64,000 bases of DNA from an uncultured Alphaproteobacteria bacterium (lineage in GTDB: Bacteria; Pseudomonadota; Alphaproteobacteria; Rs-D84), in contig CAJOGC010000002.1 in NCBI GenBank assembly GCA_905234185.1, forward strand, positions 103,949-167,948. Direction: 5' to 3'. The notes beneath the pieces were generated by a model. That model was not told the DNA's origin. It did not search any database and saw nothing but the letters and a program-made list of their open reading frames with translations. Positions 1,222-40,010 of this stretch are shown piece by piece. Position 1 is the stretch's first letter; the number at the start of each line of letters is the position of its first letter. The position numbers and the translations under genes are program-made.

Positions 1222-3621
1222 GTGCGGATTAATATGAGTAAACTTGGCGAACAATTTTCAGAACTGCGCAAATCAACACCAAAATATGTCCAGTGGTTAT
1301 TGCTGGCCGCGGCACTTGTTATCGTTTTAATTTTGTTGACTTTGCTTATGACGGGGCCAAAAAATAAAACGGCCCGGTCTGCCCAAAAATCTATGGACGA
1401 AACGCCTATCGAAGTTCGTATGATTACGATAAATGCCGACAACCAAGAAGTTTCTGTTGATAAAATCGATTGGGCCAATGTGATTGTCGGTGAGAAAAAG
1501 AGTACCACGATAACAATCAAAACAAATGCACCGACACGCGTATCTATGACCCAGAACAAGAATATTGTTGGGTTTTCTGCACAAACCACATGTACGGATG
1601 CGACCGTTATAAATGCAAAACTATCATGCAATATATATCTTAAATTCGAACCGACAACCGCCATGTCTCCGGAAACAGTGACATTGTCTGTTTATTGGCG
1701 CGCTGAAAACGACCCCGAAACAATGAATAACACGAAAAAGATTTCTGTCGTTTTGGGTGCCACCGCACCGGTCGTGCGACCTGAACCACAACCAATTGTC
1801 GAACCAGAACCGCTGTTTTCCGACGATTATGACGAACTTGACGATTATGATGAATATGATGACAATGTCGAACCACACCCAACAATTCGTGCGGAAATAG
1901 AATCAATTGCGCCGGCGTTGCCGTTCAATTCCGATATCGTGGAACCCGCACCCGTTGTGGAACGACCATCTGAATCTTGTTCTGATTTTGCCTTTCCGGG
2001 GTATGGTCCAAATGGAAATCAAATTGGCTGGATAAAACCCGAACGCGGCGGATATTATTTTCATCCTTTCTCGGACAAAGATTGTAAAAATGCAACGGGA
2101 ATCTATAACCCGGCAACCGGTGTTATTACCGATATCAGCGGCAATGGAACACGTATCGGAACCGATGCCGAACATATTGGGTATGCGGCCATAAATGATG
2201 GCGCATTGCCGGCACTAAATCCGGCCCCGCGTAGCGCAAGAACCGCATCTAATACCACGGTTTCTTCGACCAATGTTCCTATTGCTGGCATGGGCAAGGT
2301 TATTGTAAAGAAGGAACCAGATGTTGAATTTGCCTCCAGCGGCACAGACACCGTCACAAATACAGTTGCTTACGATCGCACCTTTATATTGCGTCAATAC
2401 AAACCTATTCCGGCGACAATCGTTTCCGATGTTCGTGCCGACCCATCGTTATACAAGCAGGGAAATACACTGCCTGTACGGGCGACGGTTGATCGCAATG
2501 TATATTCCGATAATGGACGCACTGTTATTATCCCGGCGGGGACAATGTTGTTGGGGTATCTGACCGGCACCATGCCCGGACCATATACGGCTATTGGTCG
2601 GATGGAGGTTAATTGGTATCAATTTGTTTTACCAAATGGTGTTGAGTTTAATTTCAGTGGTGCCAATGATCCGTTTTCTGGCGATGCCCAGGGGCGTGTC
2701 GGCGTTCCTGGTCGTGGCAGCACCGATTATTTGGAACAATTTGTTATGCCAATGTTAACGGCAATTGTGCCGGCGGCGGTGAATATGATTGCCCCGGTTG
2801 CCGACAAATTCGTTAATCAAATTGATTTGGACAATAATACAGTTGTACAAAGCGGAACAGTGCGATCGTCTGAATTGGCAAAGAACGAGATTATCACCGC
2901 ATGGAACCAAGTTGCCCAGAAATTATTGGTTGATATGATGGATAACACCGTGCCACCATTTACAATTCCGGCGGGGACCCGTATCACTGTTTATTCACCG
3001 GCTGATTTACAAGTCACGTGTGGCGCCCCAGGTACCAGTAATAAAAAGTGTGCCGTTGCTAAATACAGCGACGCAAAACGCCAATTGTGGAAAAATAGTG
3101 CCGAACCAGATTACTATGACGGTTCATGGGTGGGCCAGGCGCGTTCGTTCAATCTGGAACAATATTGCACAACAGACACTAATAATTTAAGGCGCGCATT
3201 ACCATACAGCGATGTTGGGGCTGAATTACAAAAACTTGGTTATTCATACAGCACGCTTGTTGCGTATTGCCAGGCAAGTAATTACCAGGCGATAAATAAT
3301 GCGCGTCAGGATGCCATTTATCAAAACCAACAAAACCCAAACAACAAAAACAGTGTTGCAAACGCCACCGCCCAGGGGACCAAAACATATAATGAACAGG
3401 TTCTTGGATTGAAATACAATGACGATGGTTCTATTAAGAATCCGTATCAGTCGGAAAAGAAACCAGAATCACAACAACCGACTAATGTCATCACATGTGA
3501 TGATGGTTTGGCACCGGACCAATACGGGTGTTGCACGGGTGAAATATACACAGATATGGGCGAACAGGGTTTCAATTGCTGTCCCCAATCTGGTGGCGAT
3601 TGTTTCCCGCCGATTTTGTGA
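1222..3621 (+). CDS. virB10: VirB10/TrbI-family (DotG-like) type IV secretion protein, 799 aa, with a ~230-aa Cys-rich C-terminal extension
   Basis: An N-terminal TM helix is followed by a Pro-rich acidic linker (PEPQPIVEPEP, DDYDELDDYDEYDD). The C-terminal barrel region carries VIIPAGTMLLGY...WYQFVLPNGVEFNFSGANDPFSGDAQGRVGVPGRGSTDYLEQF...IPAGTRITV, which is typical of the VirB10/TrbI signature. The tail has about 7 Cys in its last 45 aa. A GTG start lies at 1222 and an alternative ATG at 1234. Confidence 0.6.
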   Translation: MRINMSKLGEQFSELRKSTPKYVQWLLLAAALVIVLILLTLLMTGPKNKTARSAQKSMDETPIEVRMITINADNQEVSVDKIDWANVIVGEKKSTTITIKTNAPTRVSMTQNKNIVGFSAQTTCTDATVINAKLSCNIYLKFEPTTAMSPETVTLSVYWRAENDPETMNNTKKISVVLGATAPVVRPEPQPIVEPEPLFSDDYDELDDYDEYDDNVEPHPTIRAEIESIAPALPFNSDIVEPAPVVERPSESCSDFAFPGYGPNGNQIGWIKPERGGYYFHPFSDKDCKNATGIYNPATGVITDISGNGTRIGTDAEHIGYAAINDGALPALNPAPRSARTASNTTVSSTNVPIAGMGKVIVKKEPDVEFASSGTDTVTNTVAYDRTFILRQYKPIPATIVSDVRADPSLYKQGNTLPVRATVDRNVYSDNGRTVIIPAGTMLLGYLTGTMPGPYTAIGRMEVNWYQFVLPNGVEFNFSGANDPFSGDAQGRVGVPGRGSTDYLEQFVMPMLTAIVPAAVNMIAPVADKFVNQIDLDNNTVVQSGTVRSSELAKNEIITAWNQVAQKLLVDMMDNTVPPFTIPAGTRITVYSPADLQVTCGAPGTSNKKCAVAKYSDAKRQLWKNSAEPDYYDGSWVGQARSFNLEQYCTTDTNNLRRALPYSDVGAELQKLGYSYSTLVAYCQASNYQAINNARQDAIYQNQQNPNNKNSVANATAQGTKTYNEQVLGLKYNDDGSIKNPYQSEKKPESQQPTNVITCDDGLAPDQYGCCTGEIYTDMGEQGFNCCPQSGGDCFPPIL

Positions 3622-16471: not shown

Positions 16472-16508
16472 TAAAAAAAAACACCGGCAAACGCCGGTGT
16501 TTTTTTAT
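16472..16508. terminator. bidirectional Rho-independent terminator
   Basis: aaaaaaaaacaccggcaaacgccggtgttttttt between convergent genes. Confidence 0.65.
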
Positions 16509-16879
16509 TCCCAATAGTCATCATAATAATCCGTTTTGGTTGTTTTTTTCTTCATAACAGGGGTTGTTTTTTGTTTCGTTTTCTTCTTTTTTTCCGTATA
16601 TGCAAATTTCCATTGTTTATAACTTAATGGTGTTTTTCCTTGTTTATCACAATTTACTAAATATTTTCTGTATTTTTCTCGTTGATTTTTACGCTTTTTG
16701 TTTTCTTGTTTTCCATATTCTATACCAATAGATAGCATTGTTATTGCGAATATTACCGCAATATAACCAATAGATAATATTATCCAAAACAAAGAACGAA
16801 TGACAACATCATCTAAACTGGCAAAAGCAGGAAAAGAGCAAGTTAAAAATAAAGACACAAAAAAGATGATTTTTTTCAT
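16505..16879 (-). CDS. hypothetical membrane protein with Lys-rich tail
   Basis: Signal peptide or TM, a second TM, a basic C-terminus. The start overlaps the upstream gene (ATGA). Confidence 0.4.
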   Translation of the reverse strand: MKKIIFFVSLFLTCSFPAFASLDDVVIRSLFWIILSIGYIAVIFAITMLSIGIEYGKQENKKRKNQREKYRKYLVNCDKQGKTPLSYKQWKFAYTEKKKKTKQKTTPVMKKKTTKTDYYDDYWE

Positions 16880-16893
16880 TTTCTTTTCCTCTT

Positions 16894-17169
16894 TCATTCA
16901 TCTAATAGATCATTTAAAATCTCTATCGCCATTTTTCCGAATCTGGCGCCATTGAAAGAAACTTTATTACTTAATACATTTGCTTGCAGTTGATGTCTTA
17001 GAGCTCTGATACTGTCCTTGCTTGGGATAGTATTAAAATAATTGTTTATTATATAATTAAAGAATTCTTGACTTTGGGCATGTGTTATTTGGTTTGCCAC
17101 AAACCGTACGTTTGATTTACCGCCCATAGAAAAATAAATCCCTTTTACGATATCATCTAGTATGAACAT
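16894..17169 (-). CDS. hypothetical protein (start adjusted to the internal ATG with an AAGGGG SD)
   Basis: ORF with good SD. The R220 repeat lies about 50 bp upstream. Confidence 0.4.
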   Translation of the reverse strand: MFILDDIVKGIYFSMGGKSNVRFVANQITHAQSQEFFNYIINNYFNTIPSKDSIRALRHQLQANVLSNKVSFNGARFGKMAIEILNDLLDE

Positions 17170-17218
17170 TATCAGCCCCTTGGTGTATATTTTATAAAAA
17201 ACAAAACCGCCCAAGAAA

Positions 17219-17414
17219 GAGCGGTCGGGGAGTTAGAAAATCAGTTAAGTATGACTCCGCGGTCTTTAGATATACACACGCGGCTCCCCAACCATAGGTC
17301 AGGGATGATTACGGTGCAAAAACACCGAAACATCATTTTAACGATGCTTTCGCACCGACTTAACAGGACTTTCTACAGCCCGAACCCAATCTCTTGGATT
17401 CATTTCTTATTATA
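17219..17414. repeat. R220 repeat, copy 1 (about 200 bp; a second copy is at 26794-26992)
   Basis: Shared blocks cggtcgggg.gtt.gaaaatca, gattacgg...caccg, cccgaacc and gattcatttcttattata. Hairpin arms 17223-17232 and 17284-17293 show a compensatory base change relative to copy 2. Confidence 0.6.
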
Positions 17415-17489
17415 CCTTATTTATGCCTAATTGCAAACAGATTGATTTATCATTGCGAGGGAGCATAGCGACCGCGGCAATCCATAAAA

Positions 17490-17616
17490 ACTACCCCGCC
17501 ACTTCGTGACACCCCTTCGCTCGCGAAGGGGATTTTACTTTCTGGAATCATAGCATAAATCCCCTTCACTGTGTGAAGGGGTGGATTGCGAACGTTAGTG
17601 AGAAAGACGGGGTAGT
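17490..17616. mobile_element. MITE family 1, copy 1 (terminal inverted repeat actaccccg...cggggtagt, two internal ccccttc...gaagggg hairpins)
   Basis: The ends are exact reverse complements. The internal tctggaatcata core is shared with the copies at 25702-25834 and 27028-27088. Confidence 0.65.
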
Positions 17617-17618
17617 CC

Positions 17619-17785
17619 CCTGCCCCCTTGTGGGGCGGGATAGATTTATTTACGAACAAAGTGAGTTAATAAATCTTGGGTGGGGGAATTATAGGCGTTC
17701 TGTTTGCCCCCACCCAAGAGTCGCTAGTTCACATACGTTCACAAGCCGACTCTGTCCCGCCCCGCACGCTTTGCGCGGGGGCAGG
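17619..17785. mobile_element. MITE family 2: empty derivative of the DUF559 element (left and right ~70-80-bp TIRs separated by a 19-bp spacer)
   Basis: Left arm ctgcccccttgtggggcgggatag...cttgggtggggg. The right arm gcccccacccaagagtcgctagttcac...ctgtcccgcccc...gggggcagg is the reverse complement of the left TIR of the element at 39430-39983. Confidence 0.65.
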
Positions 17786-17789
17786 TCAA

Positions 17790-19364
17790 TTAATGCTTGT
17801 GTTTCTTTGCTGCGGCGATGAATGCGTTAAACATCGGGTGGCCGGTGTATGGGCTGCTTTGGAACTCTGGATGGAATTGTCCGGCAATAAAGAACGGATG
17901 GTTTTTCAATTCCACTATTTCCGGCAGGCGTCCGTCGGGACTGCGTCCCGAAATTATCATGCCCGCGTCCGCGAATTGCTTTTCGTATTCTATATTCATC
18001 TCGTACCGATGACGGTGCCGTTCCGAAATATGTTCCGCGCCCCAAATACTGTGCGCCAGTGTCCCCGGCGTAATGTCGCACGGATACGCGCCCAATCGCA
18101 ATGTTCCCCCCATATTTTTCGAATCGTGATCTGCCATAATGCCAATCACTGGGGTGCAATTCTTGTTAAACTCGGTCGAATCGGCATCCGCAATGCCCAA
18201 AACATTACGCGCAAATTCAATGACGGCAACCTGCATCCCCAGGCATATACCCATATATGGCACGCCGTTTTCACGCGCATAACCCGCCGCGGCAATTTTA
18301 CCCGCGACCCCGCGCGAACCGAACCCGCCGGGCACCAAGATTCCGTCAACATCGCTACACGTTTCCGGTGTGAATTCTTCGGCATTTATCTTTTTAATCT
18401 TTACATGCACATTGTTTTGGATGCCGGCGTGAAACAGTGCCTCGTTCAGCGATTTATACGCATCCGGCACATGAAAGTATTTTCCCACCATGCCGATTGT
18501 GACCGTCGGCAAATCCGCATCCAGGTAATGTTCAATCCGCCGAAACCTGTCCATATTGCCCGCGGCGTTTGGCAAACCAAAATGGTCGGCAATTATATCA
18601 AAGACATGTTGTGCGTCATATGCCAATGGAATCTTGTAAATATTATCAACATCAATGCCACTAATTACATTCTGCGCCGGCAAATTACAGAACATACCGA
18701 TTTTTGCGCGTTCATCCGGTTCCAACATGCGCGGTGTTCGCACGATTAGCATATCTGCCTGAATCCCGTTTTCAAGTAAGTTCCGCACCGACATTTGTGT
18801 TGGTTTTGTCTTTAATTCGCCACTTTTTTCCAAATATGGTGCCAATGTTAAATGAATAAACATAACATTGCGGCGACCAACATCGTTCGCAAATTGACGG
18901 ATTGATTCCAAAAATATCTTGCCCTCGATATCGCCCACCGTTCCGCCGATTTCACAGACAACGAAATCAGTATCGGTTGGTGCGGAAATATATTCTTTTA
19001 TCTTATTACTGACGTGCGGAATCATTTGCACTGTCGCGCCCAGATAATCGCCGCGTCGTTCCGCATTTAGAACATCCCAATATATGCGCCCACCAGACAC
19101 AGAATCGGCGCGACCCAATTTTGCACCCAAAAACCGTTCGTAATATCCCAGATCCAAGTCCGTTTCAAAACCGTCGTTTGTCACATAAACCTCGCCATGC
19201 TGAAACGGGGACATTGTGCCCGGGTCTATATTCAAATAAGGGTCAAATTTTCGCGCATGAACGGTATATCCGCGCGATTGTAAAAGGGCGCCACAACTTG
19301 CCGCCGCGACGCCCTTGCCTAAACTGGAAACCACACCACCGGTAATGAATATATATTTCGCCAT
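17790..19364 (-). CDS. pyrG: CTP synthase
   Basis: N-terminal synthetase domain (IFITGGVVSSLGKG) and C-terminal glutamine amidotransferase domain (GICLGMQ). Confidence 0.9.
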   Translation of the reverse strand: MAKYIFITGGVVSSLGKGVAAASCGALLQSRGYTVHARKFDPYLNIDPGTMSPFQHGEVYVTNDGFETDLDLGYYERFLGAKLGRADSVSGGRIYWDVLNAERRGDYLGATVQMIPHVSNKIKEYISAPTDTDFVVCEIGGTVGDIEGKIFLESIRQFANDVGRRNVMFIHLTLAPYLEKSGELKTKPTQMSVRNLLENGIQADMLIVRTPRMLEPDERAKIGMFCNLPAQNVISGIDVDNIYKIPLAYDAQHVFDIIADHFGLPNAAGNMDRFRRIEHYLDADLPTVTIGMVGKYFHVPDAYKSLNEALFHAGIQNNVHVKIKKINAEEFTPETCSDVDGILVPGGFGSRGVAGKIAAAGYARENGVPYMGICLGMQVAVIEFARNVLGIADADSTEFNKNCTPVIGIMADHDSKNMGGTLRLGAYPCDITPGTLAHSIWGAEHISERHRHRYEMNIEYEKQFADAGMIISGRSPDGRLPEIVELKNHPFFIAGQFHPEFQSSPYTGHPMFNAFIAAAKKHKH

Positions 19365-25621: not shown

Positions 25622-25701
25622 TTCGTGCTCCTTTACTTCTACGATTATAACAATATTTCGCACAACAGCAAATCTAAAAAACACCGACGCCCGCCGTCAC
25701 C

Positions 25702-25834
25702 ACTACCCCGCCTCGTTCCACTCGGCACCCTTTCACTGGAGTGAAGGGGAATTAAATTATCTGGAATCATATACCAGGTAATAAAAAATCCCCTTCATTG
25801 TATGAAGGGGTGGACGCGTAGCGGACGGGGTAGT
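25702..25834. mobile_element. MITE family 1, copy 2
   Basis: actaccccgcc...tctggaatcatata...ccccttcattgtatgaagggg...gacggggtagt. The TIRs are reverse complements. Confidence 0.65.
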
Positions 25835-25883
25835 GATGAACCAGAGTGTAGCATTCCCCCTTTAACGAATACAACAAATTGGA

Positions 25884-27027: not shown

Positions 27028-27088
27028 ACTACCCCGTCACTTCGTGACACCCCTTCGCACGGCAAAGGGGATTTTTAGTATCTGGAAT
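27028..27088. mobile_element. MITE family 1, truncated copy 3 (left half only)
   Basis: actaccccgtcacttcgtgacaccccttcgcacggcaaaggggatttttagtatctggaat, then diverges into a tgtcatccctgcgatggatggga module. Confidence 0.5.
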
Positions 27089-27251
27089 ATGATTCCATAG
27101 AACTGTCATCCCTGCGATGGATGGGAATTATTACTTTTTCAATTTATCGGTTATTTTATTACGCAGGATTCCCCATACTGTTTGATAGATCTTGTGTAAG
27201 AGTATATGATGAATAACCCCATAAAAAATACCAGCATTTGCCGGTATTTTT

Positions 27252-33314: not shown

Positions 33315-33400
33315 TGGGGTGTCGTTCCGTTTCCTCGGCTAACGCCTCGCCCGGAATGACAACGACTATGTCATGTGGATATAGTTCGTTCCAAGTTCAC
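33315..33400 (+). mobile_element. miniature insertion element at the tRNA-Gln 5' end: 11-nt copy of tRNA nt 1-11 (tggggtgtcgt) plus a ~75-bp insert
   Basis: The insert tccgtttcctcggctaacgcctcgcccggaatgacaacgac... is homologous to the insert upstream of tRNA-Glu. It is followed by the intact tRNA. Confidence 0.6.
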
Positions 33401-34358: not shown

Positions 34359-34368
34359 ATTGCCACAC

Positions 34369-34498
34369 GGTCCCATCGTTCCGTTCCCTCGCTCCGCTCG
34401 CCCGGAATGACAACGACGACGGGACGATAGACGGTCCCATCGTTCCGTTCCCTCGCTCCGCTCGCCCGGAATGACAACGACGACGGGACGACATAGAC
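34369..34498 (+). mobile_element. two tandem copies of (11-nt tRNA-Glu 5' fragment ggtcccatcgt plus ~54-bp insert) immediately upstream of tRNA-Glu
   Basis: Copies at 34369-34432 and 34433-34498 differ by a 2-nt indel. The insert tccgttccctcgctccgctcgcccggaatgacaacgacgacgggacga contains the palindrome tcgcccg...cgggacga. Confidence 0.65.
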
Positions 34499-39429: not shown

Positions 39430-39983
39430 CCTGCCCCCATTTTGTGGGGCGGGACAGAGTCGGCTTATGAACGCAGTGAATTAGCGACTCTTGGGTGGGG
39501 GCATTATTTTCCCCATCGCGACACAAAAAATTCATTAAAATCCAAATGTTCGTTTATACACATGTGCAATGTATCAACAACCGTTTTCATACCTTGTTTC
39601 GTTAATTCTGCATTTGCAACACGAATAACTTTATAGCCCTGTGATTCTATAAACTCTGTGCGCTTGTTGTCGTATTCAATATTTTCTGCGTGTTGGTTGC
39701 CATCAAGTTCAATAACCAATTTCAATTCATTACACACAAAATCAACATAATATGGACCAAACGGTTGTTGCCGGCGGAACTTTACCCCCAGTTTGTTATT
39801 ATTAATTTGATACCAGAATTTGCGTTCTGGGTCAGACATATTTTTACGCAGGTTTTTTGCACGAATAATGTTTGCTGGGTGATTTGTCATAATACAATTT
39901 TACCCCCACCCAAGATTTTCATCAACATTAAAAATGTTGTGAAAATCTGTCCCGCCCCACACGCACAATGTGCGCGGGGGCAG
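39430..39983. mobile_element. compact TIR-bounded element carrying a single DUF559 endonuclease gene
   Basis: Left TIR cctgccccc...gtggggcgggacagagtcggcttatgaacgcagtgaattagcgactcttgggtggggg (39430-39502). The right TIR (39902-39983) is its reverse complement with a variable internal palindrome. The ORF fills the interior. Confidence 0.65.
39504..39890 (-). CDS. DUF559 (Vsr-like PD-(D/E)xK) endonuclease-domain protein, 128 aa
   Basis: PERKFWYQI...FGPYYVDFVCNELKLVIELDGNQH...DNKRTEFIESQGYKVIRV is the canonical DUF559 core. Confidence 0.7.
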   Translation of the reverse strand: MTNHPANIIRAKNLRKNMSDPERKFWYQINNNKLGVKFRRQQPFGPYYVDFVCNELKLVIELDGNQHAENIEYDNKRTEFIESQGYKVIRVANAELTKQGMKTVVDTLHMCINEHLDFNEFFVSRWGK

Positions 39984-40010
39984 GTGAAAAATGCACCAAA
40001 CGGCGCATTT

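Follow-up and report, generated by a model that had tools for sequence, protein, structure and literature searches.

The 167-bp doublet at 17.6 kb of the window, by which we mean the whole 64,000-nucleotide stretch of DNA that we analyzed, consists of two inverted copies of one 70-80-nt unit set 20 nt apart. As judged from sequence comparison, the family of units to which it belongs is linked, both in position and in evolution, to a single clade of genes for small DUF559 (Vsr-like) nucleases; the association of gene and unit is exclusive, and both are under selective constraint. We lean toward regarding the doublet as a non-autonomous, gene-free, DUF559-linked member of this family that is mobilized in trans by the DUF559 nuclease acting on its units. 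The initial annotation had called it a geneless MITE derivative of the DUF559 element at 39.4 kb, and a gene-free pair of the same units, oriented as are those around the DUF559 gene, is indeed what we observed.

The window holds four copies of the unit, one in each orientation at either place (Table 1), and the covariance model recovered all of them (E 3e-18 to 4e-9); it detected no further unit in the window below E=1, the next match being at E 1.9. We counted four matches to the end motif CCTGCCCCC-N(2-25)-GGGGCGGG in the window, vs 0.00 expected by chance, and TGGGTGGGGG ends all four units. The right arm of the 17.6-kb doublet matches the 39430 unit in reverse complement, with identities of 94% over 31 nt and 96% over 28 nt, or of approximately 93% over about 60 nt when the alignment is judged by eye, which improves in both identity and length on the roughly 90% over about 45 nt first reported. 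The observation first made is thereby confirmed. The left arm has only the conserved ends in common with the 39.4-kb units, its central hairpin being different, and in the right unit hairpin 1 has a longer loop, gcgcaaagcgtgc. The arms had been placed at 17619-17686 and 17706-17785 with a gap of 19 bp, which is right within 1 nt; the gap between the G-rich motifs is 20 nt, and this spacer sits where the DUF559 ORF stands in gene-bearing copies. At its outer end, 17785, the right unit lies 4 nt from the pyrG stop codon (17790-17792). The only ORFs that cross the doublet, of 82 aa and 357 aa, both also overlap pyrG on the opposite strand; we judged them to be spurious and the doublet to be noncoding. 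A search of Rfam at gathering thresholds returned two tRNAs only in the window, and there was no match at E≤1 within 17550-17850. When folded as single-stranded DNA, the doublet adopts a four-arm structure of −49.9 kcal/mol (z = −8.8).

Table 1. Repeat units, the DUF559 gene and neighboring features; positions are those of the window unless another locus is named.
Feature	Position	Strand	Detail
Left unit of geneless doublet	17619-17686	+	Covariance model 76.5 bits, E 1.3e-17
Left unit, hairpin 1	17619-17626 pairs with 17632-17639		Mismatch T17621·G17637
Left unit, hairpin 2	17642-17650 pairs with 17668-17676		AGATTTATT pairs with AATAAATCT
Left unit, G-rich tail	17677-17686		TGGGTGGGGG
Spacer of 17.6-kb doublet, 20 nt	17687-17706		aattataggcgttctgtttg, between two facing G-rich tails
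Right unit of geneless doublet	17707-17785	-	Covariance model 56.9 bits
Unit at 3' end of DUF559 gene	39430-39501	+	Covariance model 78.9 bits; L047/L057/L077 homology starts exactly here
DUF559 / Vsr-like PD-(D/E)XK nuclease gene, 128 aa	39504-39890	-	PF04480 E=3e-34; 3hrl E 1e-20
Promoter-like TTGATG-N17-TAAAAT	39897-39925	-	Consensus match only, across inner end of upstream unit
Unit upstream of DUF559 start, sense orientation	39903-39984	-	Covariance model 42.7 bits
Second-family repeat copies	17490-17617, 25700-25835, partial 27028-27100; L086 1121-1246; L060 ~3532-3583		

Read 5' to 3' on its own strand, the unit opens with a GC hairpin (hairpin 1: CCTGCCCC(C), a loop and GGGGCGGG), continues with a second hairpin (hairpin 2: A-Y-AGA, a variable stem, a loop, the complementary variable stem and TCT) and finishes with the free G-rich tail TGGGTGGGGG. 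Pairing in hairpin 2 is maintained across 42 distinct 5' arms, with 5.54 of 7 variable positions paired when an arm is matched to its own partner vs 3.54±0.13 for permuted partners. In an alignment of 45 diverse units, 96.1% of cells were paired compared to 71.4% when shuffled and 27-55% with slid partners; cells with double changes numbered 83 vs 23.5, and the covariation score was 0.615 vs 0.137. Double changes occurred in six of the eight pairs, with all four Watson-Crick types in two of them, and G·U intermediates were nearly absent, at no more than one per pair in 360 cells. A constraint at the DNA level, with pairing required of both strands, accounts for this near absence better than an RNA-level constraint does. 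Hairpin 1 was counted by an anchored, alignment-free procedure, given that the MAFFT alignment is unreliable there since loop lengths differ, and its T·G was present in 113 of 116 distinct units, with C-G in three and T-A in none. The unit's own strand also folds better than the complement in 113 of 116, which is partly due to this T·G. Both the T and the G are perfectly paired if pairing forms between the arms of a doublet, and thus the mismatch may be a by-product of two separate sequence motifs.

We evaluated the insertion of the doublet using metagenome contigs that carry close relatives of pyrG. In L086, where pyrG is 87% identical at the nucleotide level, the site downstream of pyrG has no doublet and reads TAAtatg followed directly by ACTACCCCG; the same site in the window reads TAAttga[167 nt]ggACTACCCCG, with the same ACTACCCCG element, the start of a second repeat family, following the 'gg'. 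The doublet is therefore a discrete inserted block with the ends CCTGCCCCC and GGGGGCAGG, separating the stop codon of pyrG from a further repeat. In L085, the closest relative, all of the 1.3 kb that separates pyrG from the following conserved gene is missing, and no units were present at the pyrG site of more distant relatives, L088-L090 among them. The gene-bearing element likewise occupies differing loci in related genomes, in copies whose protein is 77-91% identical. In L077 and L047 it adjoins RNase T/UvrD, a site at which nothing but a terminator hairpin is present in the window, and it lies at yet another locus in L057; in all three, 39430 and the outer CCTGCCCCC are the exact limits of similarity to the window. 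The unoccupied site and these differing loci, with homology that ends exactly at CCTGCCCCC, bear out the earlier proposal that the family has been mobile, and the second junction does define the ends of the element, at 17619/17785 and 39430/39984.

We did not detect a target-site duplication, in that no 2-4-nt direct repeat was enriched at any offset among 42 pairs; a 2-nt GA duplication is possible at the site of the window doublet but is not general across pairs. The inverted symmetry of the doublet arms reaches approximately 3 nt past CCTG. The flanks of the 39.4-kb copy had hinted at a preference for insertion beside GC-rich hairpins or terminators, which we rejected after obtaining −2.0 kcal/mol for outer flanks vs −2.4 kcal/mol for controls 150 nt farther out. 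The initial annotation had also entertained an internal deletion as the source of the doublet. A deletion from the 39.4-kb copy was not borne out, given that the hairpin of the left arm fits neither unit there and that the spacer has no clear homology to the sequence flanking the gene; only at L006 do the stretches on either side of the gene look like one of the spacer classes in that genome.

Several other repeats were present in the window. A second MITE-like family of approximately 130 nt is bounded by ACTACCCCG...CGGGGTAGT and has internal CCCCTTC/GAAGGGG hairpins (copies in Table 1); one copy directly abuts the 17.6-kb doublet and is present in L086, from which the doublet is absent. A third short repeat (cattgcgagggagc...gcggcaatcc) adjoins the second family, as a single copy in the window (17451-17483) and as two copies in L086 (~1227-1262 and 1503-1538). 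The 1.3 kb at 16508-17790 of the window comprises two small ORFs without a Pfam match and the repeat cluster, and this segment is missing between pyrG and the next conserved gene in L085 and L088-L090. A perfect 61-nt direct repeat with 64-nt spacing is located just upstream of tRNA-Glu (34367-34491), and a 21-nt piece of it is located upstream of tRNA-Gln (33346-33366). The short repeat tgtcattcctgcgcaggcaggaat is found in intergenic clusters at ~27100-27125 of the window, at ~1290-1345 of L086 and at 1273-1301, 2023-2051 and 2158-2186 of L084.

The family is old, and several related genomes, from gut and rumen Alphaproteobacteria, contain it in abundance. A search for further copies had been proposed, and a scan for the conserved core, with one genome per species, identified 69 loci in 12 MAGs, 11 of which are termite-gut, rumen or other uncultured Alphaproteobacteria, 'Rickettsiales' or Proteobacteria. 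One doublet (L069, 7390-7553) is on a contig binned as Spirochaetaceae (Kf353_bin19), through either mis-binning or horizontal transfer. A looser pattern counted 132 units and the covariance model 135 (439 kb of related loci, 12 MAGs). Where units lie less than 80 nt apart, the order is '+ -', with tails facing, in 44 cases, '- +' in none and '+ +' in one. Geneless doublets outnumber gene-bearing pairs 44 to 5 in the related genomes. Their spacers fall into a few conserved classes (18, 19, 25 and 45-47 nt), each of which occurs in both orientations, from which it follows that the copying unit is the whole doublet. With spacer classes of their own, the geneless doublets are closer to REPINs than to sporadic deletion derivatives. 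The proportion of unit bases inside long ORFs was 31% vs a background of 82.5%, and no unit was called as an intrinsic terminator because none has a T-tail. All of the comparison data are MAG or metagenome contigs that are poorly assembled around repeats, and the short contigs that end inside the element imply several near-identical copies per genome.

All 14 of the DUF559 loci that we examined were abutted by units. Every DUF559 match at loci obtained via the repeat adjoins units, and as a control for this bias we collected homologs by protein search alone and then retrieved their contigs; the seven clade-A proteins sampled by protein similarity (L070, L077, L079, L084, L166, L170 and L176; 56-79% identity) were abutted by units in seven of seven cases. 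Among the 314 ORFs within 300 nt of a unit, DUF559 appeared at 8 loci and any other cluster at 2 at most, and no transposase or recombinase recurred. The gene takes one of two positions. It may replace the spacer, with its ATG 4-21 nt after TGGGTGGGGG and its stop codon 0-8 nt from CCCCCACCCA or overlapping it, or it may lie between the outer ends of whole doublets (L044, L011 and L079). The doublets of L079 (2270-2450 and 2885-3060) flank the DUF559 gene as 98%-identical direct repeats, a pattern expected from recombination between a chromosomal doublet and a circle that carried the gene plus one doublet. The proteins fall into two clades, of which A goes with TTGT-loop hairpin-1 units (8/8) and B with extended-stem units (4/4), and this match of clade to subtype held across a split at 40-50% protein identity. 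A DUF559 gene of 45% identity in L167 shares an operon with a SAM methyltransferase gene and is not accompanied by units. Some DUF559 copies are in conserved synteny (PNPase-YbaB) in the divergent genomes L070 and L084, which suggests long residence and not current mobility.

In the window, the DUF559 gene fills the entire space between the 39.4-kb units (39430-39984). Its stop codon is 2 nt from the 39430-39501 unit, and the G-rich tail of the upstream unit (39903-39984) ends 12 nt before its ATG. The neighboring genes encode a hypothetical protein and an acyl-ACP thioesterase, and no C5-cytosine methyltransferase is linked. We rejected a general promoter at the unit-gene junction, given that the promoter-like match is conserved only in the lineage of the window, L057 and L077. 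Across 31 homologs, D50, E61, D63, H67 and D74 are invariant and the KFRRQ motif is kept. The AlphaFold2 model of the protein (pLDDT 87) resembles 3hrl, the I-Bth0305I domain and Vsr, with Foldseek matches to 3hrl at 1e-7 and to 1vsr and 1cw0 at E ~2e-3, and both the Vsr-like fold and the active site are predicted to be intact. The protein is a nuclease domain only and has no N-terminal DNA-binding domain. Values of dN/dS were 0.07-0.18 (0.07-0.10 for the window gene) at a pS of 0.5-0.6, which indicates purifying selection on the gene. Synonymous sites differ by 50-60% among the window, L057 and L077, and the flanking units differ at 1 of ~60-70 nt (~98% identical), the upstream unit having one difference in ~70 nt from L057 and L077. 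Near identity of the units despite this synonymous divergence means that they are either strongly selected or continually homogenized. The repeat-associated DUF559 clades share a C-terminal extension (residues ~110-126 of the window protein) that ends in F-[VL]-S-x-[WY] and could be a repeat-recognition module; more distant DUF559 proteins do not have it. Candidate relatives among defense systems, named subfamilies and plasmids gave weak matches only, below the cut-off, and were rejected.

The closest analog of the doublet/DUF559 system is REPIN/RAYT, which agrees with it in every feature of architecture other than the enzyme and the repeat sequence. In each system, extragenic hairpin repeats occur mostly as inverted doublets with a short spacer, and also as singlets, and are numerous in a genome; they flank one protein gene or a few, and the protein lineage matches the repeat subtype; and some gene copies are at conserved loci, with no target-site duplication detected here. 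The RAYT enzyme is a Y1 HUH transposase, whereas the enzyme here is a DUF559/Vsr-like PD-(D/E)XK nuclease (PF04480). REP sequences are 20-40 nt with a conserved GTAG or CGTC tag (PMC3733652), whereas the units described here are 70-80 nt, contain two hairpins, begin with CCTGCCCCC, end with TGGGTGGGGG and have no GTAG/CGTC tag. Unlike in REPINs, the two arms of a doublet hold different central hairpins, and thus each arm folds on its own. The MITE label given to the doublet at the outset fits the family loosely. Like MITEs and their parent IS (e.g., Correia elements), the doublets are short, noncoding and dispersed, have terminal inverted repeats whose ends are common to the gene-bearing version, and vary in presence or absence at orthologous sites. 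Two features of MITEs did not hold, namely an enriched target-site duplication and a gene-bearing version that encodes a recognized transposase; the doublets also differ in having conserved spacer classes and not ad hoc deletions, with the gene outside doublets at some loci. Hairpins in DNA near the ends, the lack of a target-site duplication and a logic of single-stranded DNA are shared with IS200/IS605 and palindrome-associated elements. IS200/IS605 elements use a Y1 TnpA and have no terminal inverted repeats, whereas the ends here are inverted repeats and no TnpA-like neighbor recurs.

The protein itself is most like Vsr, the EDxHD enzymes (I-Bth0305I) and 3hrl, in both fold and catalytic residues, and the substrate of Vsr, a T·G, is conserved in hairpin 1 of the unit. 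The gene for 3hrl (N. gonorrhoeae NGO0050) is also bracketed by a dispersed repeat. Differently from Vsr, no cytosine methyltransferase is linked here, and this linkage is not universal for Vsr (PMC12907096). EDxHD homing endonucleases combine the nuclease with an N-terminal DNA-binding (NUMOD/HTH) region and are inside an intron or intein (PMC3239194); the 128-aa protein described here has no extra DNA-binding domain, and its gene is not in an intron or intein but is intergenic, between units. A full-text literature search on DUF559, YcjD, NGO0050, Vsr-like elements with inverted repeats and REPIN/RAYT identified no paper that links DUF559, YcjD or NGO0050 to repeat elements.

We propose that the DUF559 nuclease encoded by a gene-bearing copy would recognize, in DNA that is single-stranded or extruded, those parts of the unit that are conserved, namely the G-rich tail and hairpin 1, in which the T·G mismatch is retained. 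At a T:G mismatch, Vsr makes its nick 5' of the T (PMC3239194), and by analogy the nick may fall beside the mismatched T. Host replication or recombination would then resolve the break with no target duplication, and whole doublets, with or without the gene, would be copied into new intergenic sites. The doublet at 17.6 kb would be mobilized in trans, in the way proposed for REPINs and RAYT. We know of no strand-transfer activity for a 128-aa nuclease, which counts against this proposal, and the association of gene and unit could reflect co-inheritance only.

We considered whether the DUF559 gene might be a parasite of the homing-endonuclease type, which cuts gene-free doublets and is inserted by repair that uses the unit ends as homology arms, with the doublets being spread by other means (an unlinked enzyme or host recombination). 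The resemblance of the fold to the I-Bth0305I homing endonuclease is consistent with this reading, as is the position of the gene exactly in place of the spacer. The units that accompany one gene lineage also vary (the window and L077 have Y-gene-X and L057 has Y-gene-Z', and the geneless doublet of the window is Z-X), and the 98%-identical doublets on both sides of the L079 gene look as if recombined through the doublet. However, no other enzyme family recurs near the units, the protein does not have the N-terminal DNA-binding domain of the EDxHD homing enzymes (PMC3239194), protein clade and unit subtype are matched across the 40-50% identity split, and homing into a spacer leaves a gene outside the doublet (L044, L011 and L079) unexplained. 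We thus regard homing as unlikely. The units could instead be REP-like elements that are useful to the host, whether as mRNA 3'-end stabilizers, as sites for nucleoid proteins or as punctuation of replication or recombination, in which case they would be selected and largely immobile now, with DUF559 as a domesticated processing or maintenance factor. Their extragenic location, their strong conservation relative to synonymous sites, the synteny of some loci in divergent genomes and the placement of a doublet 4 nt past the pyrG stop codon argue for such a role, along with the G-rich tail, which in the majority of gene-bearing copies precedes the ATG by 4-12 nt, and the promoter-like match in one lineage. 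Presence and absence nevertheless vary at orthologous sites of close relatives, copies of the spacer classes run in both orientations, none of the units is scored as an intrinsic terminator, and short contigs that end inside the element imply several near-identical copies per genome, which together make a host-selected, immobile family quite improbable in our view.

We have little confidence at all in an explanation in which the units are structured RNAs, either small or cis-regulatory, and the DNA repeat pattern is secondary. Hairpin 2 covaries strongly, the G·T pair of hairpin 1 is strand specific and the sense-orientation unit forms the DUF559 leader in unit-gene-unit copies, all of which an RNA could account for. 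The scarcity of G·U intermediates and the lack of an Rfam match at gathering thresholds or E≤1 weigh against it, and given that the units are obligate inverted pairs, every transcript would include a sense as well as an antisense copy.

The large DUF559 protein family (PF04480), among whose members are E. coli YcjD and the protein of the solved but uncharacterized Neisseria structure 3hrl, has to our knowledge no function that is established. We rejected a parallel in which E. coli ycjD is flanked by REPs, as none are annotated there. In Bacteroidota (L080, L081/L082 and L083), DUF559 genes whose products are 40-49% identical are in the synteny MoxR ... Apyc1-like lactamase and have two upstream and two to five downstream tandem copies of a different G-rich unit of ~72 nt. 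In N. gonorrhoeae (L169; NZ_CP119142.1, 48090-51410, a chromosome filed as a plasmid), NGO0050 has one upstream and two identical downstream copies of a hairpin-bearing repeat of 120-180 nt that occurs at 11-14 places per chromosome. These two leads hint that the pattern of DUF559 with repeats may be wider.

In summary, the strict and ancient link between protein clade and repeat gives DUF559 a concrete candidate substrate, a hairpin with a T·G mismatch. As a tentative and rather doubtful extension, the family could represent a distinct class of mobile repeats that is spread by a stand-alone Vsr-like (DUF559) nuclease recognizing a T·G-mismatched end hairpin, in which case the REPIN/RAYT lifestyle would have arisen a second time, independently, and the class may extend to other DUF559 clades. 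The units also break the assemblies of gut and rumen Alphaproteobacteria MAGs. If our proposal is true, REPIN-like genomic replicators would not be restricted to HUH tyrosine transposases, and repeat families said to 'lack a dedicated transposase' (PMC3733652) would gain a candidate for their partner enzyme.
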